A stretch of DNA of 58,611 nucleotides, filler included, from Sphacelaria rigidula (taxonomy: Eukaryota), in NCBI GenBank assembly GCA_964200075.2. It is 7 parts of 7 records of this genome, joined end to end, with 100 filler letters (N's around TTAATTAATTAA, not from the genome) between each part and the next. Parts side by side here need not be neighbours in the genome. Positions count along the whole stretch, not along the records: positions 25,165 to 33,451 come from CAXNAA020011648.1; 6 more parts are not named here. One strand, given 5' to 3'. Positions 25,505 to 57,839 of the stretch are shown here, piece by piece (position 1 is the first letter of the stretch; the number at the start of each line of letters is the position of its first letter). A model generated the notes under the pieces. That model worked only from the letters and a program-made list of their open reading frames with translations, made no database searches and was not told the origin of the DNA. Made by a program: the position numbers and the translations under genes.

Positions 25505-26209
25505 TCATGAGGCATCTGCATCCCATGCGGTATCCGTGTTCCGTAGAACGGCTGTGTCGAGATCGCCTTGGGCGTGTCGTTGGAGGCACCAGGATCCCCT
25601 CCGAGCGGTCGGCACCTCGGTGTAGTATGCATCATCCAAGCGAATCTTAAGGGGGCTTGGGTCATCGAGGAAACGGATAAAGTAGGAGTGGTCAAATGCA
25701 GGATCGACCAAATGAAGTTTACCCAACCACCACAGTGAATCCAAGGCCTTGAACCAAAAGTACGCCCCCTTCGGAAAGCGTCGTCCGTGAAAAGACTGCA
25801 TGTATCGTGAACGCGAAAGAAGGCTATAGCCTGTTACAACAAACCGCGCTGAGTGTTCACGTGCCAGTTCCCGAGCAGCAGCTCCCTTGCGCATCGACCG
25901 ATATCTCTTATTCAATGGGCGGTGTTGGACGGTATCTCCTACCCAGTACAGCAATATTTCCCGACGAAAATGACGCAAATCAACTTCACGCTCCCATGTA
26001 ACACGCATGATACCCTTCCAATGTGGTTGATACATTACAGCTATTTTACCTCCACGACCGCGAACCAGTTGATGGCCCGAAATCCTATCTACCCTAACGC
26101 GTTCCAGGGGTGCGTCTACATCCTCGACCGTCATATGATACGGCTGAGGTTTGGTCGCATACTTGGTCAACACATACTGGCTAAGCCCTAGCGGCAGCTG
26201 TCTGGGCAT
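25505..26209 (-). pseudogene. Integrase C-terminal extension: chromodomain (~26098-25943) followed by a PWWP/Tudor-like domain (~25777-25637)
   Basis: VDRISGHQLVRGRGGKIAVMYQPHWKGIMRVTWEREVDL fits the chromodomain pattern Y.v.WKG....TWE.e..L. FPKGAYFWFKALDSLWWLGKL...YFIRFLDD resembles PWWP G..VW.K....WWPg.v...Y.V.F..D. Confidence 0.7.
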
Positions 26210-26717
26210 GTCAGAGGAGTCATGAGGGGAGACACACGGTTTGCATCGTAGTATCGAGACGCGAGTTTCGGTTTCAAACCAGGTTCATCCGTGGGAAAAT
26301 CTTAATACAAAAGTTTCGCTCCCACCGGACTCTTGCCGGGTGCGATAGCGCTTGGGCCAACAGCTAAACTTTTCCAAGGACCAGTCCAATTCAAGGATAG
26401 TTTTGCCTTCATCACTTTGTCCAAAGATGATGATTTCGAGCTAGCTCCTTGATTGATGGGCTCCACATCGTTATACACCCATGCCCATTGGCCTACCTTC
26501 CACACCGGACGGTTATGTACCACATCATCCAACACCGAGTTTGCCCTGGCTATCTTGGCCAAATTGATTCGGTTCTGTTCTCGTACCACTTCATATGCAA
26601 GACGAAGGCGATTGCTAACCGACAAATGATACTCTACAACATCACGATCTAGACTCTGATGTCCGCCTGTATTTTTGCGTTCGAATACCGTTAAAGGTAA
26701 CCTAGGCATGCGTCCAA

Positions 26718-26930
26718 TGATTGATTGATTGATTGATTGTCGCACTGACCCCCCCGGGGTCCGGCCGTGATCTCATGATAGACGTACTCAAGAAAAACGG
26801 AATTCAAACACGTTGTAAGGGGGAAAAAAAGGAACAGAAAACAATAGGAAGAGGAGAAGAAACAAAAAAGAGAAAGAGGGGTCGAACGGAACGGCATAGC
26901 AGACTAAGTCGTGACGAAACACTATATATA
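26718..26930 (-). mobile_element. (TCAA)n-tailed retroposon fragment nested inside the Gypsy integrase
   Basis: Interrupts the integrase between ...ITGLSPN-IH and IGRMPRLPL; carries the conserved terminus and (TCAA)n. Confidence 0.85.
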
Positions 26931-29900
26931 TATGAATTCCATTCGGTGACAATCCCGTAATGGCATTGACTGAATTGTTTTAGTTTATTTGGACAACGGG
27001 CAGGTGCAGATCCCAGTCCATCTGTCTCTCATTTGCTACAGCAGCAAGCATCTTTGCCACCGTATGATTCACTCGTTCCGTTCCACCATTGGAGGAAAGG
27101 TGATATGAAGTAGTGAAAATGCGATGAGCACCCAAAATGTCACTGACGGCAGCTGAACGCTTGCCTGAAAAATGCGGGCCGTCGACAGACAGTAAGCGTT
27201 TGGGCACACCCCACTGTGGGATGTGCATGTATACAAGAATGTTGGCGGTACCTTCCACGTTATAGCTACTGGCAGGGACAGCGTGCATCACCGCATGTCG
27301 ACTAAATCTATCCGTAAACAACAAAATATACTTATTACCACTATCCGTTAGGGGCAGAGGACTAGAACAGTCACACGAAACTACTTCGCCAGGCCTGTTT
27401 GGGAGTGTCATGGAAACAACCGGCCGACGAACTGTTTGACGGGAAGGTTTTCGCGCCTGACACAAAAGACAACGCCTCACCCACCAACGCGACTGATCCA
27501 TACAAATTCACCAATAAAAACGTTCCAACATCTGGGAGGTCCTAATGGCGCCTAGATGAGTCGATGCCTGTGAATGTCATTCGTGTAGAACCCACGGGCG
27601 CAGAAGCATCGGAACATAGATGTGGATGGGTTCATCACGTAGCAAGCGGGCATGTCGACTTGTAGGCTTCCCCCTGGGGAGGGCTGCTGTGGGCCGGCGA
27701 ACTAACAGAACTATACCATCATCATCCGTATGCAGCATACCTTTCCTTGAAAGTTCAGTAACTTCATCCTGTGTGGGCGCTTTGAGATTCCCGACTGGCA
27801 AAAGGAATTCGGTTTCTGAGAATGGACATGGGCAACCTTTAGATAAATAATGAATAGCTGATTTTCAAGCAGGTTCTATCTGTTGTTCCCGGGCCCCATC
27901 GGCGTGGGAGAAGAGAGTCAAACGTTCCTTGAACACGCCATCTGTTGAAGCGTCTACTTCGTGTTGGGTCGGTTCGAGGCGGGGTTGGCACGAAGCGGTG
28001 ATTTCGGAATCAAGGGTGAGCCTACCAGTTGGTGTACTCTCAGACGGAACGATAACGTCTACTCCTGCGTCGATTAGCGTGCAGGGTGTTGTGGAGGTGT
28101 TTGCAATATCATCACCAAGGCAGGGGGGCATAGCCGTGGTTTCGGCTATGGTTGGCAGGGGCGGCACGGTCGCGGTCGATTTCCTGGGGGCCTTGCGTCG
28201 CGGAGGTTGAGGAGGCACAAGGAAACTATCGGGGACCGGGGTGGGGGCAAGGAGGGGAAGGTCAGGGCCAGATACGGGTAATTTGGTGGCCGTTTCGGCG
28301 GTCCGCTGTCCACGAGTCCTACTCGAAATCAAATCTCGAACTTGGACTGGTACGATGGAGTCAGCAAAGGACGGTCCTACACCTGCTGCGAAAACTATGC
28401 ACTGGCCAGTTGCACGAAAATGATCATAGCCAACAGTATTCGGAGACAGTCCATGCCAAGCTGAGTACAACGATTGAGGTTGCAAGCTGCCCAGAACTGA
28501 TGCGTGGGCTGTGGTCGTCAGCCCACCCATGCCTAAAGCCGACGTTTCTGTCAGTGAAAGTGGTGTGTAGAGGCCTTTATATCCATTCCTGCTTATGAAA
28601 TATTGAATGTCTTCGGTGGGATCGGTGATACGTTCCACGGTGGATTCATCGATAGGTTGAGCCGGCGTGGGCAAGCGTGACAGAAAGTCGGTGTTTGCAT
28701 TTTGCGGGTCTGTGCGATATTTCAACTGGAAGTTGTAAGACGACAGGATTTTGAACCAGCGTTGGACCCTAGCGTTGTGTTCCGCGATTTTCGCAAGGCT
28801 TTTCCAAGACTGATGATCCGTATAAATCACAAACGGGATGTCATACAAATACTGACGCAGACGTCGCACGCCCCAAACAACTGCGCCGGCCTCTTGTTCC
28901 ATCACAGACCAATTCTGTTCATTCGGAAAAAGTGGTGCGACTCAGATAGACAATGGGACGAACAGTAGCATCGACTTGCTCCTGTTCTAATGTGCAGCCA
29001 AACCCAATTTTGGAAGAATCTGTGTGGAGCCGGAAAGGGCGGGAACCCTGTCCGCGGCCGACTAGTCGGGGAAGATGAGAATCGGCGGGCGCGAAAGGGC
29101 GTCAAGAAGACGGCGGGCGATTTTTCCATCTCCAATGTGGACACAAATTTCACCCCTTTTTCGAGAAGGGTGGTGAGGGGTTTTAGCGTTTGGGCAAGGA
29201 TCGGCAAGTACTGTCTGTAGTAGCTTAGACCTCCCAACAAGGAACGCAGTTGAGAAATGTCCCGGGACATGGGCATATCGGTGAGTGCGGCGACCTTGTC
29301 GAGGTTTGGGCTACGACCTTCGGGGGTGATGCAATGACCCAAGAACTCAATCTTCGTGGCGCCAATGCGGGATTTGGAGGGGGCGAGCTTAAAGTTGTGT
29401 TGTTCAAACCGATTAAAGAATGATGCCAACTGTTCGACGTGTTCAGCCGGTGTGGAGTCGTGGCACACCGCGTCATCAAGGTAAATATGGCATTTGGGCA
29501 ATCCATCAGTTACACGGAACATTACACGTTGAAACGCACCTGGAGCTCCGGCGGCACCTTGTGGTGTAACCAGCCACTCGTACAAACCTGATGGCGTGCG
29601 AAACGCTGACAGTTCAATGGAATTTGGATCCATCACGAGCTGGTGGTAGCGGGACTGCATGTCAAAGTTCGAAAATACCTTACCCCCGCCAAGAGAAACA
29701 ATAATTTAATCAATCCGTGGAAGTGGCAGTCGAGCGATTTTGATGACAGCGTTCAATCGTTGATCATTGATCGTCAGTCTGATTTTGCCATCTTTCTTCC
29801 GGACGACTACTAAACGCGAGGCCCACGGAGACGTCGAGTGCCGAATTAAACCGGCGGATAAGTAACCATCGAGTATTACTTGGATCTTATTCGCTACGAG

Positions 29901-32900
29901 GGGCTTCGTACGGTACGGACGCATAGCGATAGGCGGAGGGCCATCAGGGATTTTGATCTTGAACGGTGTCGTGATACATCGACCTAAATCCAAGGGCGCG
30001 GTAGAAAACCTTTCAGATTATCTAATCACGATAGATCTCAGTCTTTCGATTACAGTGGGTGTCCAACCATCGCCAGATAGATCAAAACAATATGCCTTAA
30101 GTTAGGAGGCATGTCATCCCACAACTTTTGAAAAATAGCGCGTTGTTCTGGGGAAAATCTATCCAGTAATGCACTTGGGGGTTGAGGTTCAGGCGCATCG
30201 GGTGTATTTGTCACCACCATGGGGTCAGGCATATGTAGCGGAGGGGGGGCCGTGGATTTCGGGGAGTCGGTTGACGAGTTGTTGTCCGCAGGGGGGCACA
30301 CATCTGACAGGACTGTTCGTATGAGAGGCGCTTGAGCATAACCCAACAACTGACCGGCGAGTATATCGAAACATACACGAGACGTGAGGTATATGGCCTG
30401 CCTACTTCCCTGGAGAAAGACTTTGGTCTGTTCAAACGGACCAACCTGTGCTCGGTCAGGTTTGAGAGATTCGACCAAATAATGTCCTGTGAGGGCGGGC
30501 GATCCGTTGCGCCTCACGAGGTTCACTTGTATAAGTTGGGGTTCACGAGAAAGCGAGACTACAGGTTCACCAACATAGTACAGACGGAAAGCATTGCCTG
30601 TATGCCTGGGGTCATCCTCATAGGCGTGAGCTCCCGAATCAGTGTCGAAGTGACCCAGTGACAGTTTGCCTGTGACTGAACTGTTCGGGACAGATGTGCC
30701 CGACGTGTACGAGTGTGTGGAAAAACGAAGCCAACTATCTCGACCCAACAAAACATCAAAAGACATGGAACCGTCGGGCACAATTAGTGCCGATACAGAC
30801 AACCGAGCAGTGGGAGTAGTATCCTGGTAAAATTGTACACTTAGTATCTCCGATTGGTTAAACGTAACAGATGTGGAGGAACCAAACCAACCAAAAACGC
30901 GAGGGTGCACGGTTGATAGACAATGCTCGTCCGCCGCGCCCGCGTTGATCATCTGTTGCCAGCAGCTGACTGTAATGAACTTTTGAGGCGACCAGAGTCT
31001 GGTAGTGCAAGAGCTATCAAATGACAGTTTGCACGCGCTCCACTATGTAAACCTATCTTGGTCGTGAAAGAAGCATCATCCATCGTTGCAGTACCACTGA
31101 CGAGATTGGGCCCGAATTCGAGTAAGACATCTGACACACCCTGCTTTGCATTTTGAACGAAGGTGCCAAAAGACACCCGTTGATGATCCTGTGGGACAAG
31201 CTTTTGGTCGGAAGGATGGTGCGTGCATGGACTGTCAGTGTTTGTGCATGGAATATTTGTCTCATCAGTCGAGGGTTGAATCTCATATACTGCAACGGAG
31301 GGGCGATGCTGGGGAAGGGCAATTGTCGTGGTTGGACCCGACAACTGATCTGTGCGTGGTGTTTCACCCTTATTGGCCAACAGAGGGGACGAATCGTCAT
31401 TGTGCAAAGCCGGATCAATTACATTATCCAGCTTGGTCAGAAAAGGTGACGATTCATCGGAGCGCGGTGTTGAGTTTGATACGCCAGTCAACTCAATACC
31501 ATCACTGGTTAGGGCCAACATGGGAGGTTTCGGAGACGATTCGTCGGGACGCGGGGTTGGTAAAGCTGTACTGTTCAATCTGGCGTCTATTGAAGGGGCC
31601 AACGTGGCGAGTTAGGAGATGAGTGGTCTTGCGTAATTCTTTGTCTGCCTGGTGACAAACACACGATTGAGTTGTCTTCATGACTAGGATGCGAACGACC
31701 ATGAGTCGGCGAAGTCTCTGTCCCTACAGACGCAACGCTTCATCGGAAATGGGTTCTAACGCAGTGCACAAGGGGTGGTCAGCGAGCAGTAACGATCTGT
31801 TCGAAATCTGGGGAGTACCGGCCTGTTTCACTCTGAGGTTTTCATCTGTCCGAGCCCACACGCAATCTCCTCCTTGGAGTTCACGTGCGATTGCTACATC
31901 AGGGCTATCTACATCATCATCTGGAGGAGCCCGCCTATGGTGACGACTGCTGCCGAGATAGCCCCCCCCCCCGAACCGGCCAAAAAAGTGCACGGAGGCG
32001 ATGATCATAAATGCAGTTAGAGCTGGTTTCGTGCTGCACGACGCGACTCATTCGAAGGTTATAGCTGATTTCGGACTGCTACACGCCTCTCATATAGGCG
32101 AAATTGCTGCAAACGAGCCCAATAGTGGGATCGCGCCGGTTTATCGGACGGTCTCCGGTGCACTTTTTGTTGGGGGGGCTATCTCGGTATTAATCTGACG
32201 CGTATAGCGCACGAAAGGGTCGGCGGCTCCAGCAGCTATTGAAACGAGTTCTCGGACAGTCGAACCTAGGTCACGCTTTTGGCGCACCACCTGAGTCGCT
32301 GTCAGTTGGGGTTCCATTCCAACCCGCTGAGCGACGGAAAGCATGGGTTCTTTGCTGTTGCAACCTCTCAAGGAATAATTACGCTCAGCATATAGAAGGG
32401 AACCGGGCATGGTAGTTTTTGCGGAACTCGGTAGAGTGGTTAGCCGGGCACTTGAGCAGTTGGGGGGTGCTTGAGCGTGTGGCTTTGAATTTGGTGTTCT
32501 CCGATGAACGGTCGGAGAGGCAGTGTCTACCGTTCCAGAAGATATTTCGGCGCCAGATCCGTTAGAAACTGCACTACATGACTTCCTCTCCTCCGAAGGG
32601 AAGGGGTTCGATTGAATATGATTGGTACCTGGTGGATGTAAAACTGGGTGATCAAATCCAGGATTAAAACGTTGGGTTTGGTCACTGCTTAATTGATAGC
32701 CATATAGCCATGCAACGGTGCACGGGCTTCGGCTGTCTTGGAACCCTTCAAGGTAGTGTCAGCATATCCAGGGAACCCACACCACATGGTTGAACCCGCG
32801 GTGGCCGCCGTTGATTCACGTGTGTGATGTTCGTGACCTGGCCGAGCGAAAGAAAATTGTTGGGTACTTCTGCGGTGAGTTACCGGCGAACGTTGATTCC

Positions 32901-33666
32901 TAGTTGTGGGGCTGTGCCAACGATCGGGGAACGAACTGTCGTCAGAAGTACAAAATAGACGGGCAGGTGGTTGCGCCCAGGTTTTTGGGTCAGCCACACG
33001 TCCTGTGTTACCCCACTGTTTGGCGCTCGGAAACGCGGGGGCTTGGTAAACGTTCCCAGAAAATGGTCAAGTTGTGCGGTGAGCATCAGGGGTGGGTTGT
33101 TGGGCGTTTTCCTGGCGTGGGGGACCCGTAGGACTAGGTGCAATCATCAGTGGTCGTCTTCCGTCTTGTGATTGTGCCTGGTTCTGCGGTTGAGAGTTTG
33201 CCGGGTCAGACTGTGTTAGACGTGGCGCTGAGTCGGCAGGCCGCGTTTGGTAGTGCGCTGTTTGGTACAGTGGGTCTTGGTAGCGGGAATCATTTACCGT
33301 AAAAGCAATTACCCCGTCTAGGGCGGTTGGTTTGGCCACGCGTGTCGCCGCATTGAGGGCGGCGGTAAGAACGCATACGCGCTTGCCAAGTTGGCCAGCA
33401 CGAGAGTCATCCTACGATAGGGGGGGGGGGGGGGGGGGGAGACGGAGTGTTNNNNNNNNNNNNNNNNNNNNNNNNNNNNNNNNNNNNNNNNNNNNTTAAT
33501 TAATTAANNNNNNNNNNNNNNNNNNNNNNNNNNNNNNNNNNNNNNNNNNNNAAGCCTACTGATCATCTTGCATTTGGATGACAGTCACCAACGAGTTGCT
33601 TTGTTCTGTGGTATCGCCACTTCCAGAGACAGCCATGACTTTTACACTGCCTCATGGGTGCATCAC

Positions 33667-33820: not shown

Positions 33821-34893
33821 CAACCTATGTGTTTTTGGTCTGCGGGGTCAATGAGATCCCCGCGTTCAAATCAAGATGTGTTTTTGGTTGGCGGGGGCAT
33901 TGAGTTCCCCGCGTTCACCTCTGATTGTGTTGAGTTGTCAGTTGTGTACGTGTCAAGCCTTTGCATGGGCCCCTCCCATCTGGACACTTATGATTCTCTT
34001 TTGGCTAGAAACGAGGCAAATCTTTTCATTTTTGGAATCAGCGTCATTTTCACTCGAAACAATTAGTGTCGGCATCATGGTCAATTGAGAAAGGTATGAA
34101 ACAGCAGCGTACCGTCCTTCTCCACTGAACGCTCGGGGCGGGGTTGTCACGCCGCGAGCGCGTTGTGATCTTGCCTGCATATCGCGTTGTCTCGACCTTA
34201 CTTCATTTTTTCCCATCTCTGGACTGCTGCTGCTACTCCACAGTACATGCGATTTATTTTTCATAAGGCACTGAAAATGACGCTATCTACTATTCTAATC
34301 CGAATACCCCCACCGTACTCCCGCCCACCCTTGCCCCATTCGCCGGCTGCCAAAGCGCGGCGTGCACATAGCCCNNNNNNNNNNAAAAAACACCCTATTA
34401 TTATTTTTAATCCCAACGCCCCCCCCCCCCCCCCCCCCCGGGCTATGGTCAACGGTCAAACGACTACGGCAAGCAACGAATGAGTACGCCTCATCGGATT
34501 GAGGTCGAAAACAAACCCTTCTTTTTCGAATTTAAGTCGGCATCAGCTCAATGGGTACTAACCCTTTTTCTTTGTGGTAGACGCGCGTCTCGCCCAAATC
34601 ATCGTTTCTCATGGAATTCTGAAACGTTTTGCGCAAGGCCTCGAACAACGTGCTCAGCTCATAAGCTAGCTGTTACTACCGCTTTGTCAAATTGTGCGAT
34701 GTACCATTACGCAACGCACATGAGTATCAACACCGGTGCCCATGTATCTGGCTGTCGATTCATTCAGCGTGGCGGCGATGGCCGCCGAAAATCTCGTATT
34801 CATATGCTTTGTTCCCCATCACAGTTGAAGGCGAGCTGGGAGGTAAACCCTCGAAAACAAGACGTTGCATTGTACGCTACGTTTTTGCGGCAG

Positions 34894-34927
34894 GTACAGC
34901 AGGAGCAACAACAGAGCCGACAACGGC

Positions 34928-34976
<49 letters not shown>

Positions 34977-35002
34977 GCAGCAGCAGCAGCAGCAACAACA
35001 AC

Positions 35003-35062
<60 letters not shown>

Positions 35063-38000
35063 CACAATGTCGATCACAGTTATTGTCAACAGCATCAGCC
35101 TTTACTAATCAAAGACAAAGCGAGCAGCACCGACAGTTTCTCAAGTCCTGATACGCGGAACTCGGCAAAGTCAAAGCCCTCAACATTCGTCGTTGGCGGC
35201 GACGGGCGAGGTTGCGCTGGAAAGTCAGGGACAACAAGTGGTCGGGAGTGTGAAGATGGTGGGAATAATGGTGATTGTATCAAGAAGGGGGCGCGGGAAG
35301 GGGCTAGAGGTGGCGAGGAGCGGCAAACGTACCCTGATGGCTCGCACGAGTTTGCTCAAAATGGTGAAGCGGCAGGTGGTAATGATGTTGATAGCAATGG
35401 TGATGGAGATCAAAACGCGGAGGAGCTATTCTTGCGTTTCGCGGTAACAGACACTGGAATAGGCGTGGCTGATAGCATGAAACCGCGTCTGTTTCAGGCA
35501 TTTTCTCAGGTGCAGCTGATGCAAAATACGGGTGAGTGGCCGTATACACGGCTTTTTTTTACCGTAGTTCTTGCTGTTCGTGTATTGATGCTTGTATGTT
35601 CTGATGTGATTTTGATTGGTGGTCGCACATAAAATACTCCCTCGGGAATTCAGCCTTGGTCACATGATCGACGTACGCGAGATCAAACAAAAAGGGAACA
35701 CTCGCTGAAAGGAGAGTGCAGAGAAACAGAAAGGTGGAACAGATAAGAAGGTGAAACAAACCGAAGACAAGAAAAATAGGACTAAAAATGACCGGCCTGT
35801 GCAGCATGGATGGCTTCAGGTGGAAAACATCTTGTGCAAAAGCAAACGCATTAGAACGTGATCGAGAAGAAGCTGTGAGGACGTATTACGGCTCATCTAA
35901 AACACGGAGTATATATATATATATATGTATAGATTTAAACATCGAACCTACCGTGGAACTCGAAACTGCAGTGCAGTACGCGGGAAGTACTCACCCTTCT
36001 TGCCATGACCACACGCCAACGCAGCGCACAGCTTGTGTTGGTGTTTGTTTGAGCTGGTACTCGTCTTCATTCGTTGATCTTTCCTCCGTTGCCTTTTGGT
36101 GTGTTCTGGATCTCAGGATTCGATACAAATAGAAAGTATACCATGCGAAAAGATTGCGTTGTTGTCTATAGACCGGCGCCCAGAATAGATGGGACAACAC
36201 AGACACAGACACAGACGCACACACTCGTGGGAACTGTCCCCATTTTGTAGTCCTTCTCCACATCATATCTACCCCTCTCACACGCCTCACCCGCTCTATC
36301 GGCAAGAGAGGCCCCCAGGGGTAGCTTTAGCCGGCTAGCAACTAGTACTACCAACTCTTGCTCTTCAAACAGTTTCCGGTCTTCCTGCTTGTGGGCTGCT
36401 ACTCCCTCTCACCGTAGACGGTCTACAGAAGTTTTCGTACTACAAAGGTCCAGTGCCGTGCAGAAACAAGTCACGTCCCGCAACTTTTTTGCGACCCGCG
36501 CAGCTTGAGCTCGTGCACGTTTTTTTTTTTTTCCCGGCATTTGAGGTCGGACTAGACCTTACGACTGTCTGATCCCGAGTTCGGCGGCCCTAAGGTCGAC
36601 AGCCTGGTGACGGAGGGGTGTTGTGACAATTCCGCTGCTCTTCAACGTGGCTTCCATGAAAAAAAAATGGATATTCGCCATCTTCGTGTAGGTACCGTAG
36701 ACGACATGGTTCTGTAGTACAGGTGGCCTTTTACTAGCCTGACTGTTCTGGTGGGTTCGGAATAGCTGTTTTGATGAAAGACATAACGCCCACGAAGAAA
36801 TAGGTGGATCTGGACCCGCTGGGCCGTTGCCACTCACATACCGCATCATCGTCGGTACTTTGCAGTACGGAGCTCAGGGCGCAGCCATTACCACGGGAAG
36901 CGGAGGGGTGTGGGTGCGACCATTTTGCTGACGGACGCCTTCGGCAGATACCGCTAAGATTGCTCTGCTGTGTGATACAGATGCCCTCCAAACTCCGAAC
37001 CGAGCGCTCCACCATGGATACAGATTCTACACTTTGCCACACTGCAACGAAGGTTTTTCATATTTTTGTTCGATTTGGCGCCCGAGGGCCATTAAAGGTC
37101 CTTGAACACATGAAGTTGTCGTAGTTTAAATATCCGTGGGACAGTTGGGCCGTACTCTCGGAGTAGAAAGGTCTCGGACGCCGTAAGAGTTCATCCCTGG
37201 CTTGTGCAATATCATGAGCGAACTCATGAACTACATGGCTATGGTCGATTTTTCGTTCTCTCGAACTCCGTTGCTCACCTGTACCGTCGTGTTGTCGTGT
37301 CCGCATCGATATCCATCGGGCTACTGTAGAATTTAAATGACCAGCACAAGAGTGCTGACCGTTTAGGTGGTGATCCTACCAGAGTTGGGCGTTAGTTTAT
37401 TGTGGTATGTTCAATGGTGTATTCCAATGTATGTTATTCCTCTGCCTCTGTCCCGTAAGTCTGGGTGGCTGTGTTTATTCGGGTCCTTCACTAGGTCCGA
37501 TTTGATTCTTGTTCTTTGTTGTTGCATTTTTTGGCGTCTTTGGAGGTAAAACCAATGTTTGTTCTTGACAGGACAGTTGGGGCTTGACCCATGCGCCCGA
37601 GCGGTCGGTAAAACTCAGTCGGCCCGGAAATGGCCGCATGTCACCCCTTCTTCGGAGGCAACCCTCCCCCCACCCACTTCCCCACTCCCGGCAAGAATAG
37701 AACAAACGACTCAAAACCTCTTCTCTTCAGCTTAATTCTTGCACAGGGGCTGGGCTGGCTACGTGTCGCCCTCGATCACGTTTGTCTCTTCATCATTTGT
37801 GTCCAGCACGAAAATGGCAACAACCGGTTGAATTTGGCCAAAAGCAGATTCGAAGTTGCCCAAATTGGGTCAATTTTGACCCGAAATTGTGTTCAGAATA
37901 CATATGTCCCCCCCTTATTCTCCTATGAACATCTCTATATCTTCATCTCTCCATCGGTGCTAACTCTGGCATCGTAAGCGCCCCCGTTCGGGAGATACGA

Positions 38001-40678: not shown

Positions 40679-42459
40679 GTGAGGGGGAATATGTGAGAGA
40701 GGGTACTGTTACCGTTGGCTACAGCCAATGCACACGTCACGGACCAGGAAATGTGCGCACACGCAGCAAGTATGCGATTGGTATGCGTGGTTGAGAACAA
40801 ACTATACGTGCCGATGTAGGCGATTATAACGAGCACAACCTTCATTATAGAGTTTGCGACTACGCTCAACATCGAGATTTGTTTTTCCGGGTGACTGGCC
40901 GAAACGAAGTTCACTTGGAAAACGTACCATCACCTGTGAGCACAATATAATAGAAAAAAATTAGCTGGATGAGATCCACAAAGAATCAAGCACCGAGACA
41001 CGTCACGAACAATTCATACAGGTAGCTATAGACTGGACAAACCTTGCAAGCGAAGGCGATGTCTTGCGGGACGCTGGATAAAACAACGTTTTTCTGCATT
41101 TGTCGTCCAAGTGTCTCACATAACCATCTTGCTCTTGTCTGTTAATGCCGCTGTGCCATGTAGCCCACGTGAGCGAACCCTCCCACTCATCACGAATACT
41201 TAACATTCCTTGCTGTCTTGTCTGACGAATGTCTTGTATAGCGGCTGTCTTGTATAACGCACCGACCCGCTAACTGGAGCAGCCCAGCAAGTGTCAAGTT
41301 TGTGCATCGGAAACAATAAGTGGGCCCCAAGTGGTGTCGAACATTGATACTCGTCGCCACTATCAGCAGCACCATGGCCATAATCCATGTCATACCCTGA
41401 GAAATGATAGGCTACTCCAGTGACCGTGTCGGCACGTTGTTCAAGAGAGTCGGCTCCAACCGTCGATATGTGTGTCGAGCTGTAGATCATACAGAGGGGG
41501 GCTACTATGGTATAGCGGTACGATGGCGTGAAATATCTTTACCGTGAGGTCACTTGAATATTCGTCGATATCTCTATTTTTACCTTCAGTGTTTCGACAT
41601 CCCGAAAGAAGCGACCGGAGTATGATCCATCATACTTTCGTCGACCCTCATTTCATCCGAAGGGCGAGGAGAAGGATGATTGATACGCTCATGTTTGAGT
41701 AGTCGTAAAAATCAATTGTAGACTAATCTCTGTGTCTGTCCTGACGATTCTCCCGGTCCTCGATACATGCACACATACATCTGCACATTTTCAGGGTATG
41801 CGGTGACTTGCTTCCCCCCCCCCCCCCCCCCCCCCGCCNNNNNNNNNNNNNNNNNNNNNNNNNNNNNNNNNNNNNNNNNNNNTTAATTAATTAANNNNNN
41901 NNNNNNNNNNNNNNNNNNNNNNNNNNNNNNNNNNNNNNGCGCGCGATGTGCCGCATCAGGTACAGTTTAGAGAGCGATGGCCTAGCACAGGTACGTTCTC
42001 GGCCGACCGGTGGCCCAGATAAGGTACGATTGAAAAAAAAATCCTAGATCAGGTATACCTGGGCGAAATTTGGCCTACAAAAGGTAAGTGGTTTCTGAAG
42101 GCGAGACGTCCGCTTTCGCGTGGCCATATCTCTCGAGTAACATGGTTTTTTCCCGTTTTTTTTCGAGGCCGGGGTGCCAAGGTGCCAATGGCCCCCCCGA
42201 ATGATGTGCGTGAAAAATTCGTAGCGAAAACGGTCAAAATGGCGTGTTTGGCTGCTTTCGCGTTTGTGGCCATTTTTCGTACCTTTCTTGAGCAAAAAAC
42301 GAGAAGGTATACCTTTTCTAGTCCATTGCTCAAACAAAAATGTCTCTCACCGACCAAACCTCCTACAATGTCCCCTAGCTCGACTCTGTACACGAGTCAC
42401 CCTACCCATCCGGGCGTCGGTCCTCAGAATTGGTTATTTTTCTTCGTTCGAGTAGTATC

Positions 42460-49904: not shown

Positions 49905-50456
49905 CCAGTGTCATCCCAAATAATACTAGTAATATAATTTCAATTTCATGCTGATGATGCGGTTTGGCCTTTCATTTTTGCGAGTAGAAGGAGGCAATCT
50001 CCCTTGTGATGTGCCGGACTGCCCTTTGATGTGCTTTCTTGGCGAGTGGAAACGTGAGATTTGGCAAACATAATTTATTCACGACTTTGGTTGGTACGGA
50101 CAGCGGATGAAGAAGAGTGAGCTCCAGAAGCTGGGGGGGGGGGGGGGGGGAGAGAAATGTGTGGATTGCCGCAGAGGTTGCCGAGGTAGACACCACACCC
50201 CTTGGAGGAGAAAGCGCGGTGGAAGNNNNNNNNNNNNNNNNNNNNNNNNNNNNNNNNNNNNNNNNNNNNTTAATTAATTAANNNNNNNNNNNNNNNNNNN
50301 NNNNNNNNNNNNNNNNNNNNNNNNNGGGGAGTGGTCTCGCTTACCCCCCCCAACAGAATAAGGAGGGGATGTGGTTTGCTTAGGTTTCTCATTGGAGAAA
50401 AACAAAATGCTTGAGTTTTTTTTTTTGTGCATCTTTTTATTGCGGAAGTTCCTCAC

Positions 50457-53301: not shown

Positions 53302-53550
53302 GGGGGTGGGGGGGTACTCATGATCCTGCGTGCCGTAGTCATGAGACCATTGGCCTCGGATCCCTACAAAGTTGGAACGGAGCACACCGGGCTATCACCG
53401 GACCAGGCTCGGAATTAATCACCAAGCGCGAAGCTCGGTGATGTGTTCGGCGGGTCGCATTAAGGGTGGGCTGCAGTCTACTCAGAGTGTTCGGCCCGAA
53501 GCGTACAAACTTGTTTGCACATGGATACTAGCCTCGAATGGGTTGATTCA
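53302..53550 (-). repeat. ~280-bp dispersed repeat, copy 4
   Basis: Reverse complement aligns with 2390-2631. Confidence 0.8.
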
Positions 53551-55413
53551 CTTCTTGAAAAAAAAAGGGAAAACGCATGCATACGAAATCACCACACACT
53601 ACAGCACGAGTTGAGGAGCCGATACATTGCTGTGAGATCTGTCAACCCTTTCTCGTCTCCAGAGGTGTGCTTTAATCATTTGAGTCGGCATCGTTTTCAT
53701 TTCAATAAGCATGACCGTAGGATCCAGAAGGCCGATCCGCCCTCACGAGTCAACGGGGTCACCTTTGGGCACTCGAAGGTATCGATCAACGACGCAAGCG
53801 CTTTTCTGTTGGTGAGTGAGAATGTTGCAGCATCAAGCGTCGACCCGCTCGGCGACGACCTAATCTTGTCGCGTCAGTCAATACCAGCACTTGAAATCAC
53901 TTCGAAATCTCACGGAGACGCGCGGATATCTTTATATTTGGTTTGTTCTTTGTTGAGGGGCCATATTCCAAAACCCTTGGCGTCCTAGAAAATCGGATCA
54001 CTAGGTTGGACATCTCTCGGCGAGGCCATCATGTGATCAGTGTGTCCCAAGACACACTGAGGAAGACACACCGGGGATGAATGACGTGAAATGCTGCTAA
54101 TTGAAAACATGCGCCTGGACCAAAAAAAAACTGTTGAGACCAAAACGCATTATTGCACTCGCCGGACAACATATGACTTCGTCGAAAAGTGTACTTCGTA
54201 CAGTATCGACTATTGTGCCCATCACAATAGACAACAGATTCAATACTTTACGCAGTACACTTTTTGATAGTGTAGTCCATTGTCCGTACGTATCCAGAGG
54301 GTGCATCATTGCTACCCTTTGACCGCCCGATTGTCTTGTTCGGCTCCCAATCTTCAGTCTCGAAAAGCAAGAAAAATAGCACATCATCCCCGCTGCAGCG
54401 ATCACAGGCTTTGAAAGCATGCCGTGCAGAAAAAAAAAGTACAACCCTGCGTGCGTGTGGCACGCGTTCGGTTTTTTCTGTTACACGCTGAGAAAATTGC
54501 CGTGTATAGGTGTCAGAAACATGAGAGGAATAAGAGGTTCTAGCCAAGATATCCCTTCATGATGACACTTTTCACCGCGATCCTGACCGGACGCCACCCG
54601 TTGTGCCCCGCGCACCATGGAGCGTGAAAAAATCCCAGCTCTCAAACACGATCTTTCGTAGGTGGGATACCTCGGGTCATGCTTTTTCCAAGTAGTGGTG
54701 CGATAAAGGAGGCGGAAAATGCGATAAAAAAAGGGGGAGGGAGAACTGAAAAAATTGATGTCAAATCAGGAAAAACACGGAACATATAGAGAGAAAGCGT
54801 GTTTGTTTTCCACGACATGGGAGAACGAACACTTCAAAGACACGATTAGCAACCGGCGCTGGAGACCAGCGGACACCTTATCGCCCCACGAATCTCTGTC
54901 GCCGCCTTCGCCTATTGCGTGTGGCCGTGATCCGTGTCCTCGGCTGTGTTTACGGGACTTCTCTTGCTCGCACGGTCATTGGCCAGCAGCTAGCTAGCAC
55001 CAACTGTAGTATAGTGCGGTACAGCTGTAGTTACCGCGAAGATAGAATAGTGCCGTTCAATACAGTACGGTATAGGGCAAGGTCTGCAGTTTTTGTGCGG
55101 ACAGACGCGGATATATGTGGAAGAGGAGCGAGGGTGGAGGTTCGCAGTTTCTACAACTGAGGTGAGGGTACGCTGCGGGTGGGCCGATTTTAAAGGCCGA
55201 CGTGACGTCATCCTACACACGCGTGCGCATGTGTATGTGAGTGTGTGTGTGCTGGGTACGCCGAAGGCGGACCTTCCTTTCCTGCCATCTGTGCACAAAT
55301 GGGTATAGAAGTTATGGTGGCGTTCTTTTTTCCATTTTTTATTGCTGTCTGAACGCCGGCAAACCTCGCGTGCTTCGTGAAATTGTTCGACTTCATGATT
55401 CATGACAAGCTTC

Positions 55414-56274: not shown

Positions 56275-56340
56275 TTTTTGATTGATTTGATCGTCGCACT
56301 TGAACTAACCCCCCAGGGATCCAGCCGTGGTCGCATGATA
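56275..56340 (-). mobile_element. (TCAA)-tail retroposon 3' fragment
   Basis: gtcgcacttgaactaacccccagggatccagccgtggtc.catgat is the reverse complement of the family terminus. Confidence 0.7.
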
Positions 56341-57839
56341 CACCATGCATGCGGCACAACTCTGAGTGAAGCACTGTCGCGTGATTTTATGCACTGGAAA
56401 CGATACCTGTGTGAGCTGCATTCTACTCCTACTTCATGACAGTGGACGCGGTCCGGGATAGGTGGGAGGATCGGTACAACCACCCGTCATGATGAGAAAA
56501 AAATGTAGAAATATAAATATATAGTAGATATAGATATACGAGCTGGGCCGGCTTAAGAGCTGCTAAAACTTGCGCACACCACAGCTTCTCCCAGTTTCCC
56601 GAATGAACCCGATGTAAGCATATCACTGTGAAGTGTAGACCAACCTGGTGACACACGGCATCGCCGCTGAATGAAAAAAAATGAAAAAAATGTACTGCAG
56701 AATGTATGACCTTCACGACGGACGAAAAAAAAGAGAACCTGTCGGGATTCGAACTCATGACCTCCATAATTGGAATGTCCCATCACTTGATTCGTAGGGG
56801 TGCAGCAGCGTCACGGAAAATGTTGAACGCACGGCCCAATTCGACGACTCTTGAGCTCAAGTTTCAGGTAGACCTGCTGCATCCAAGGAACTGATACTCC
56901 ACGTGTCCAGCTGCAGATTCTCATATTTTTGCTGGACTCATAACATTATCTTGTTTTTGCTGAAATTTCAAATGCCTGTAACACATATATATATATATAT
57001 ATATATATTCTTTGCTGCTCACGTGATCTTCTGCATTTCGATCATGAGAAGCTGCTGTCAAAATTTCAGCTTCCAACTCCTCATATCGCGTCGTGGGTCG
57101 CCTGAGCGAGAATCACACCTACTCTTGGCTGGCCCAGCTCGTATATTACCATCGAGATCATCCACAAGTCGGTCCATTTAGAAAATGCAAAACACATGAT
57201 AGTATGATAAAAATAAAATGGGGTTTTATTCTTGACCGCTGCGAGCGCGTATTTCGAGACGACTCTTCATATTTTTTTCCTGTTTGCATCCTTGTGGGCA
57301 AAGTATGGCAGCGTTTGCCATCGTGTCTGGCCCCGAAGCTGGGAAGTTGAGAGTCTCGAGCCCCGACCCGAGCAAACCCCGGGGATTTTGTCTGGGAGGA
57401 CCGGTGCTGTTCTGCAGGTTCCAGATCGGTCAAGCGCGGGAGATATGCAACCAGGGGTCACTGACCTAAGCACACGCCGTGGGGGCTCCGCGGTGTACAA
57501 AAACCGTGTGGCCATCGGTACAGCCTTTCTAGCCCCAGGATTGGGCTTGTACACCAAAAATTTATCAAGCGTTGACTATTTATTGAAAGTCGATTCGATT
57601 GTCATATTCATAATCGGATTAACTTCATGTTGATTGTTGATCAGTCAGTGATGCGATAATTATAACACTTGGTTATTTTTGGAAATAAAAGAGGCGTTTG
57701 CACCGTGTAAACGCCACCCATCGTCTGCGGCGCGCGCGATCAAACGACCTCGGATCTGCTCGACACGACGATAAAAGGATTTAGAGTGAATCCAAAGAAC
57801 ACTGTCCACACATAGCGGTAGCAGCACACAACAGCAGAG

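Follow-up and report, generated by a model that had tools for sequence, protein, structure and literature searches.

The analysed window, a stretch of 58,611 nucleotides (filler included) from the genome of the brown alga Sphacelaria rigidula (assembly GCA_964200075.2), carries on its minus strand the remains of the pol gene of a Ty3/Gypsy retrotransposon. Complete polyproteins of related elements aligned to these remains colinearly in tblastn, from about position 30844 down to 25511, in frames -3, -2, -1, -1 and -3. The region between 27865 and 30844 comprised the end of the protease, the reverse transcriptase (RT), the RNase H and a Pro/Ser-rich linker, distributed over three frames (-3, -2 and -1 in tblastn), with clear Pfam matches to RVT_1 (E 7.5e-21) and RT_RNaseH (E 1.3e-17). 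It was followed by a piece encoding the end of the integrase zinc finger and the catalytic core (26980–27507), where the Pfam rve match was weak and below the cut-off (E 6e-5), and by the C-terminal integrase piece with the GPY/F module (26302–26772). The integrase was interrupted by 213 bp of a short dispersed repeat (26717–26929), an insertion recognised by self-blastn and from contig joins. Considering the window pieces together with the relatives, the order of RT, RNase H, integrase with an H2C2 finger, rve core and GPY/F was that of a Ty3/Gypsy pol. The last feature of the locus was a frame open over 259 aa between two stop codons (25505–26284, minus strand), whose stop codon occupies 25505–25507. 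The alignments of the polyproteins P0004, P0006, P0161 and P0179 ended here, and because of this colinearity the frame represents the extreme C-terminus of pol, by which the integrase of this decayed element is extended.

An earlier inspection of this DNA without database searches, called here the sequence-only reading, described in this tail an uninterrupted 234-aa frame with a chromodomain and a second, PWWP/Tudor-like domain behind the integrase. The 234-aa frame was confirmed, running from the ATG at 26209 (residue 26) to the stop inside the 259-aa open frame. Both strings quoted for the two domains were also present, 'YQPHWKGIMRVTWEREVDL' at residues 85–103 and 'FPKGAYFWFKALDSLWWLGKLHLVDPAFDHSYFIRFLDD' at residues 170–208, with the reported spacing of about 55 aa found between W114, where the chromodomain helix ends, and F170. 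In the numbering of the 259-aa frame, used throughout, the residues previously given as W152, W160/161 and F180 are W177, W185/186 and F205. The position of the frame relative to the GPY/F motif needed correction: WTGPW does lie upstream (26374–26388), but outside the frame of the tail, the two being separated by an in-frame stop at 26302–26304 and a change of frame a few codons on.

The copy present in the window is dead, as its pol is distributed over at least four frames, bears one insertion and has no detectable pair of long terminal repeats (LTRs). Contigs from all four sequencing runs examined ran from 26716 straight into 26930, skipping the insertion. The inserted dispersed repeat, about 90–210 bp long with copies 72–86% alike, also occurs at 13140–13234, 20676–20775, 21361–21487 and 56278–56343, and may be an element similar to MITEs (miniature inverted-repeat transposable elements) or SINEs (short interspersed nuclear elements). 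Three attempts to detect a direct repeat pair flanking the pol remnant in the window revealed none, which could be explained by decay of the copy or by the location of its ends under masked stretches. Six pairs of 44-base N runs were noticed in the window (8289–8388, 16677–16776, 25065–25164, 33452–33551, 41839–41938 and 50226–50325), with a period of 8387–8388 bases, and this regular spacing points to masking rather than assembly gaps. One of the pairs follows the stop codon of the tail at a distance of about 340 bases, where the 3' LTR would be expected to start, and another near the expected 5' end. The sequencing runs containing the stretch carry algal labels. In two of them, 3519 and 3322 contigs matched a 2-kb stretch of the repeat with a likeness of ≥90%, indicating a high-copy family, and the copy in the window differed at many sites from most of the contigs covering it. 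None of the listed runs containing the tail was recorded as RNA; two presumed-RNA runs covered the tail and were uninformative on transcription.

A HMMER search of 1.84 billion representative proteins with the tail revealed 737 matching proteins at E≤1e-3, including 333 at E≤1e-10. A search for longer proteins yielded nine long polyproteins with RT/integrase Pfam domains, which covered 67–99% of the tail at 42–56% identity. Both domains were present in eight of these nine long tails, the ninth (P0010) ending early. The closest named relative was an unnamed protein product of S. rigidula itself, with 84.8% identity over 257 aa. P0161, P0179 and P0167, the longest three polyproteins in the family, start with a NADAR domain (PF08719), identified with E-values of 1.7e-47, 2.9e-36 and 2.8e-18, respectively. 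The family is taken to be the NADAR-bearing Gypsy lineage of brown algae, a membership inferred from the architecture and the host and not from sequence comparison. One relative, P0093 (373 aa), is a gene model in which TIMP and WSC domains are fused to the linker and barrel of the family; most likely, the gene caller joined a host gene to a neighbouring fragment of the element.

Conservation along the tail was evaluated by column counts over 160 sequences, many of them translations of decayed copies. The segment between the integrase and the chromodomain (residues 7–59; 26108–26266, minus strand) was strongly conserved in the alignment, with the pattern R-C-K-P-C...L-P-x-G-L-x-x-Y-V-L...S-P-P-Y-H-x-T (then DV), and was predicted to be disordered (predicted local distance difference test score, pLDDT, of 37–51). 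The two domains formed two separate conserved blocks. The consensus of the first was I-(T/S)-G-H-Q-x-V-R-G-R-G-G-x-x-A-V-x-Y-E-T-H-W-x-G...W-E-R-E-x-D-L...I-L-x-Y-W, and that of the second L-P-x-G-A-x-x-W-(Y/F)-K...W-W-L-G-K...Y-x-V-R-F-L-D-D-P-G-P...L...Y...G-S-W-C-L-Q-x-H. In the linker joining them (residues 118–167; 25784–25933, minus strand), Y128, R132, A136, R138, R142 and Y153 were conserved. Judged by these sequences, the tandem of domains is kept across a diverged and proliferating family.

The first domain (residues 60–117; 25934–26107, minus strand) was modelled as part of the whole tail with AlphaFold2 on a 56-row alignment, giving a pLDDT of 82.2 and a predicted template modelling score (pTM) of 0.72, with residues 60–250 confidently predicted. 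The model of residues 60–117 showed strands at 65–75 and 81–89, a short third strand and a C-terminal helix at 100–115, the three-stranded sheet and helix of a chromodomain. Its comparison by VIA-align, a structural search independent of Foldseek, gave a Z-score of 7.2 to the Chp1 chromodomain, covering 53 of its 55 residues at a root-mean-square deviation (rmsd) of 1.8, and Z-scores of 6.0–6.8 to Chd1, HP1 and Polycomb. In profile searches against 177,635 PDB sequences, the best target of the family profile was the Swi6 chromodomain, which matched this domain with E 0.018 and then 0.0074, below threshold. Sub-threshold matches to Pfam Chromo were also obtained for 6 of the 16 relatives scanned (E 0.0026–0.098). 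The chromodomain proposed behind the integrase is therefore borne out by the predicted fold.

For the second domain (residues 168–240; 25565–25783, minus strand), a separate AlphaFold2 model of residues 126–259 reached a pLDDT of 90.4 and a pTM of 0.83. It consisted of five strands (175–179, 185–193, 200–205, 208–215 and 232–237) with pLDDT over 90, forming an SH3-type barrel, preceded by a linker with a long helix (126–143), a short strand (153–155) and a second helix (158–164). Foldseek, in which sequence and structure are combined, placed the Tudor domains of PHF19, PHF1 and MTF2 at the top, with a probability of 1.00, target-normalised TM-scores of 0.59–0.70 and 25–29% identity; the alignments had rmsd values of 1.9–2.3 over 45–52 columns and E-values from 5e-3 to 3e-2. 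In VIA-align, 38 of the 50 rows listed for the domain-only model were Royal-family folds with Z-scores of 4.1–5.6, encompassing Tudor, extended Tudor, tandem Tudor, Spindlin, Agenet, SAWADEE and chromo-barrel domains and one PWWP domain. Ten of the remaining rows were other small barrels (TraI, KOW, Ski2, Pelota, R67 DHFR, a designed SH3 and UBE2O) and two were unclear. Small Tudor domains were covered almost fully, namely RDM15 (56/58), PHF19 (55–56/57) and SMN (54–55/56), and the barrel together with the preceding helix matched extended Tudor domains over 77–83 residues with Z-scores of 5.2–5.6. A second Royal-family-type, Tudor-like fold behind the chromodomain is supported by these models, and the five-stranded barrel expected by the sequence-only reading was confidently predicted, with Tudor domains as its best matches.

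Sequence-level signals for the barrel were weak. The second-best PDB target of the family profile was the PHF19 Tudor domain, aligned with this domain at E 0.043–0.063, below threshold, and Pfam Agenet was found below the cut-off in 2 of the 16 relatives scanned (E 0.02 and 0.23). The profile match anticipated earlier was thus seen, to PHF19 (E 0.04–0.05) and Agenet (E 0.02), but below threshold in both cases. A comparison of the barrel with the protein atlas provided weak leads (scores of 0.81 or less), a phmmer search of the PDB with the tail produced no more than noise (linalool dehydratase, E 0.36), and the viral fold library BFVD contained nothing meaningful (best E 0.011, with an rmsd of 15). 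The weak signals obtained, Swi6 and Chromo for the first domain and PHF19 and Agenet for the second, agreed with the fold searches for each of the two domains.

The label of the second domain had to be changed. A PWWP identity was rejected, as the family consensus reads (G/S)-L-W-W-L-G and not P-W-W-P, and the barrel is followed by no helical bundle, only a four-residue helix and a low-confidence end being present past the strand 232–237. The single PWWP row in VIA-align (Shuguo, Z 4.9–5.4, 56 residues aligned) was level with many Tudor domains, and neither a PWWP nor a Tudor family of Pfam was detected in the 36 proteins and window open frames scanned. The barrel was classed as Tudor-like on the basis of the L-W-W-L motif, the missing bundle and the one PWWP row against many Tudor rows. 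Two further candidates were discarded. The likeness to the translocation-signal domain of TraI (Z 5.7–6.5) was judged to be a shared small-barrel arrangement. When compared with the barrel by hhalign, the integrase GPY/F region reached a probability of 0.3% and the chromodomain one of 0.1%, which gives no support to an origin of the barrel by internal duplication.

The residues of the barrel were conserved by position. W177 was kept in 63 of 80 sequences, W185 in 62 of 75, W186 in 58 of 73, F205 in 56 of 66, D207 in 53 of 64 and W232 in 41 of 48, and all six were retained in 27 of the 48 near-complete barrels despite the many pseudogene rows. The conserved set comprised W177, F/Y178, W185, W186, Y201, F205, D207, D208, P209-G-P211, W232, C233 and H237. 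The aromatic residues singled out by the sequence-only reading (W177, W185/186 and F205) are among these, and their conservation in family copies was upheld. The aromatic cage positions of Swi6, MPP8 and PHF19, presumed here as they are generally understood, were mapped through the alignments. In the hidden Markov model (HMM) alignment to Swi6 and MPP8, one of the three chromodomain cage positions was aromatic, W89, which was W in 83 of 95 sequences. In the alignment of the barrel to PHF19, two of the four cage positions were aromatic, being occupied by W186 and F205; W177, F/Y178, W185 and Y201 are conserved near these positions, and the F-L-D-D motif of the barrel aligns with F-E-D-N of PHF19.

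Such a pattern may be brought together as follows. The window probably holds a decayed copy of a high-copy NADAR Gypsy family of brown algae, in which a chromodomain and a Tudor-like barrel extend the integrase, and in active copies this tandem module would bias integration; this account is favoured with reasonable, though not high, confidence. Taken as predictions, the two folds are established, together with their conservation and the family assignment. The extension would consist of about 250 aa behind GPY/F, arranged as a disordered conserved segment, a chromodomain with an incomplete cage, a helical linker and the Tudor-like barrel. In active copies, the tandem Royal-family module would tether the integration complex to nucleosomes, as supposed for the chromodomains of chromoviruses, and such tethering would bias the choice of insertion sites. 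By this analogy, the arrangement of chromodomain and barrel probably helps to choose where new copies land. That either domain reads a histone mark, and with it the bivalent targeting put forward by the sequence-only reading, is a hypothesis. With one of three cage positions aromatic in the chromodomain and two of four in the barrel, neither domain alone resembles a textbook methyl-lysine reader, and the incomplete cages leave room for a composite pocket, a different ligand or a barrel binding nucleic acid or protein. The barrel may supply or complete a methyl-lysine pocket absent from the chromodomain alone. The likeness to Polycomb-like Tudor domains would suggest H3K36me3 as the mark; the incomplete cage of the barrel precludes a confident call.

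Several observations weigh against this account. Pfam detected no family at E≤1 in the window's own tail, none of the relatives reached the Chromo gathering score of 25.1 bits (the best, P0182, had 18.1 bits, E 0.0026), no barrel match in Foldseek attained E≤1e-3, and the copy in the window revealed no NADAR domain. All VIA-align Z-scores were below 8 (best 7.2 and 5.7), a middling range that perhaps reflects only a common arrangement, SH3-like barrels being common, and that is expected for domains of about 55 residues. The first and third cage positions of the chromodomain are aliphatic, residue 63 being L/V/I and residue 92 L/I in 75 and 82 of 95 sequences, respectively. In the barrel, the equivalent of W50 of PHF19 is A/S/G/T and another cage position is Pro-rich. 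Moreover, the cage of the barrel is not universal in the family, since the divergent branch P0076/P0089 keeps both domains with Y177, Q186 and L/M205; judging from their sequences, these two may represent a natural 'cage-less' variant, which would be useful for comparison.

The most serious rival concerns the nature of the barrel. According to it, the barrel is a generic SH3/KOW-type fold, not a reader of histone marks, which binds nucleic acid or a protein of the host or element. It would serve either as an additional DNA-binding module, comparable to the C-terminal domain of the integrase, or as the docking site of a host factor; any contact with chromatin would be left to the chromodomain. 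The C-terminal domains of retroviral integrases are indeed SH3-like DNA binders. The KOW domains of Spt5 and DSIF, as well as Ski2, Pelota, R67 DHFR, the designed SH3 and TraI, scored at Z 4.1–5.7, level with the Tudor domains; the PHF19-type cage is only half aromatic and loses W186 and F205 in P0076/P0089, and the conserved basic residues K189, R204 and K213 are located on the barrel. However, the sole sequence-level signals were to histone-reading Royal domains (the PHF19 Tudor domain and Pfam Agenet), Polycomb-like Tudor domains were ranked first by Foldseek, the F-L-D-D motif has its counterpart in PHF19, and the Royal-family folds dominated the VIA-align rows. A generic barrel is regarded as unlikely on this balance, although it keeps more weight than any other alternative.

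It is very improbable that the tail was domesticated as a host gene at this locus and stayed open for that reason while the rest of pol was broken. The length of the frame (259 aa) and its ATG codon at residue 26 would fit such a gene. Nevertheless, open frames of 358, 330 and 267 aa occur in other pol pieces of this copy, so that the open tail is unremarkable and is not evidence of anything; the special status given to the intact frame by the sequence-only reading has to be abandoned. Further arguments against domestication are the position of the stretch in a repeat covered by thousands of contigs, the divergence of the copy from most of these contigs and the lack of any hint of a promoter or separate transcript. 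The view that a random open frame in decayed DNA resembles reader domains by coincidence, which the missing Pfam family in the window's own tail might favour, is already refuted by hundreds of homologues with position-specific conservation, by the confident structure predictions and by the convergence of sequence and fold matches on the same two domain types.

Other features of the window were found away from the element. An open frame at 3378–4517 (minus strand) contains a GIDA/FAD-binding N-terminal motif (PF01134, E 1.5e-12) and probably belongs to a host MnmG/MTO1-like gene as one of its exons. A long array of CAA/CAG triplets was located at 34869–35084 inside open frames spanning 34411–35632; the Pfam TFIIA match there (E 1.1e-8, just under the cut-off) is probably an effect of low-complexity poly-Q. 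Two kinds of repeats were also noticed: an inverted pair of about 1.6 kb with 74–83% identity (8935–10573 versus 52524–50874), and a unit of about 280 bp at 2350–2631, 11448–11972 and 53308–53557, arranged in tandem at 11438–11972.

The chromatin of brown algae makes the choice of mark a particular question for the proposed tandem module. According to the available parts of PMC13076208 and PMC12477816, these algae are without PRC2 (Polycomb repressive complex 2)/H3K27 methylation and without DNA methylation, and H3K9 methylation is only sporadic. H3K79me2 and H4K20me3 accompany repression and H3K36me3 activity, as stated in the accessible text of PMC13076208, and intact transposable elements (TEs) of Ectocarpus carry H3K79me2, as stated in that of PMC12477816. 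A bolder claim would be that this is the first transposon-borne tandem Royal-family module, with a whole brown-algal Gypsy lineage encoding in cis a two-domain histone reader that steers integration through one or more non-canonical marks, such as H3K79me2, H4K20me3 or H3K36me3. The module would then be adapted to a chromatin without H3K27 and DNA methylation and with little H3K9 methylation; this is put forward tentatively, as a possible but doubtful extension.

Integrase-fused chromodomains are the textbook case of landing-site choice by TEs through chromatin reading. If true, the tandem of chromodomain and Tudor domain would extend TE targeting to combinatorial or composite reading, and the module would serve as a compact natural probe of the marks that define 'safe' chromatin in brown algae, a hypothesis open to testing. 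Since Pfam misses both domains, Pfam-based surveys of TE domains would overlook this architecture. TE fusions are described as mainly Chromo and PHD in the available part of Grau-Bove et al. A literature search for integrases with a chromodomain plus a Tudor or PWWP domain found nothing beyond the Ectocarpus paper (PMC12477816) and general surveys.

Among host proteins, LEDGF/p75 tethers HIV integrase to marked chromatin through its PWWP domain. The analogy with the tail is functional, a Royal-family barrel steering a retroelement integrase in either case, whereas LEDGF/p75 is a host protein recruited in trans and the barrel described here is encoded in cis and is not PWWP. The closest structural counterparts are the Tudor domains of the Polycomb-like proteins PHF1, PHF19 and MTF2, readers of H3K36me3 according to the titles of PDB entries 4hcz, 4bd3 and 5xfr. 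They are the best match of residues 168–240 in both fold and sequence and share with them the pattern G-x-x-x-x-x-K/R...D-G-L-aromatic-aromatic-L-G-K-I...V-x-F-x-D. The E-values of this likeness are not significant, and two of the four presumed cage positions are non-aromatic in the barrel. The tail also differs in having no PHD fingers, in its context of a transposon integrase and in its N-terminal helix, as found in extended Tudor domains.

Among TEs, the chromodomains of chromovirus integrases (MAGGY, Tf1 and others) and of the oomycete Chronos elements are thought to tether integration to marked chromatin, according to the accessible parts of PMC5348765 and PMC12477816. The fusion of a chromodomain to the C-terminus of the integrase is common to them and to the family described here; they possess one reader domain, in contrast to a chromodomain with one of three cage positions aromatic followed by a second barrel. 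The Ectocarpus chromodomain lineages are unrelated to chromoviruses or Chronos, as far as the available text of PMC12477816 (Dinatale et al., Genome Biol 2025) states. The same source, in the part available, describes four Gypsy lineages in Ectocarpus, one of which, exemplified by Gypsy-12_Ec32, combines an N-terminal NADAR domain of Pol with a putative integrase-fused chromodomain. This lineage resembles the present family in its Ty3/Gypsy pol, the N-terminal NADAR, the chromodomain behind the integrase and the brown-algal host, and differs in that a chromodomain alone is described for it in that text, whereas a conserved Tudor-like barrel follows the chromodomain here. Another Ectocarpus element, Gypsy-10_Ec32, has a C-terminal Tudor domain (cd20401), reported in the accessible text as the first found in a TE. 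Like the S. rigidula family, it is a stramenopile Gypsy element whose Pol ends in a Tudor-type domain; by description it is a separate lineage with the Tudor domain only, found by standard domain tools, whereas the barrel described here escapes Pfam. No element with both a chromodomain and a Tudor domain is described in the available part of that paper. The chromodomain of the NADAR lineage was thus already published in 2025 and, as far as the available descriptions go, the barrel added behind it is the new part.

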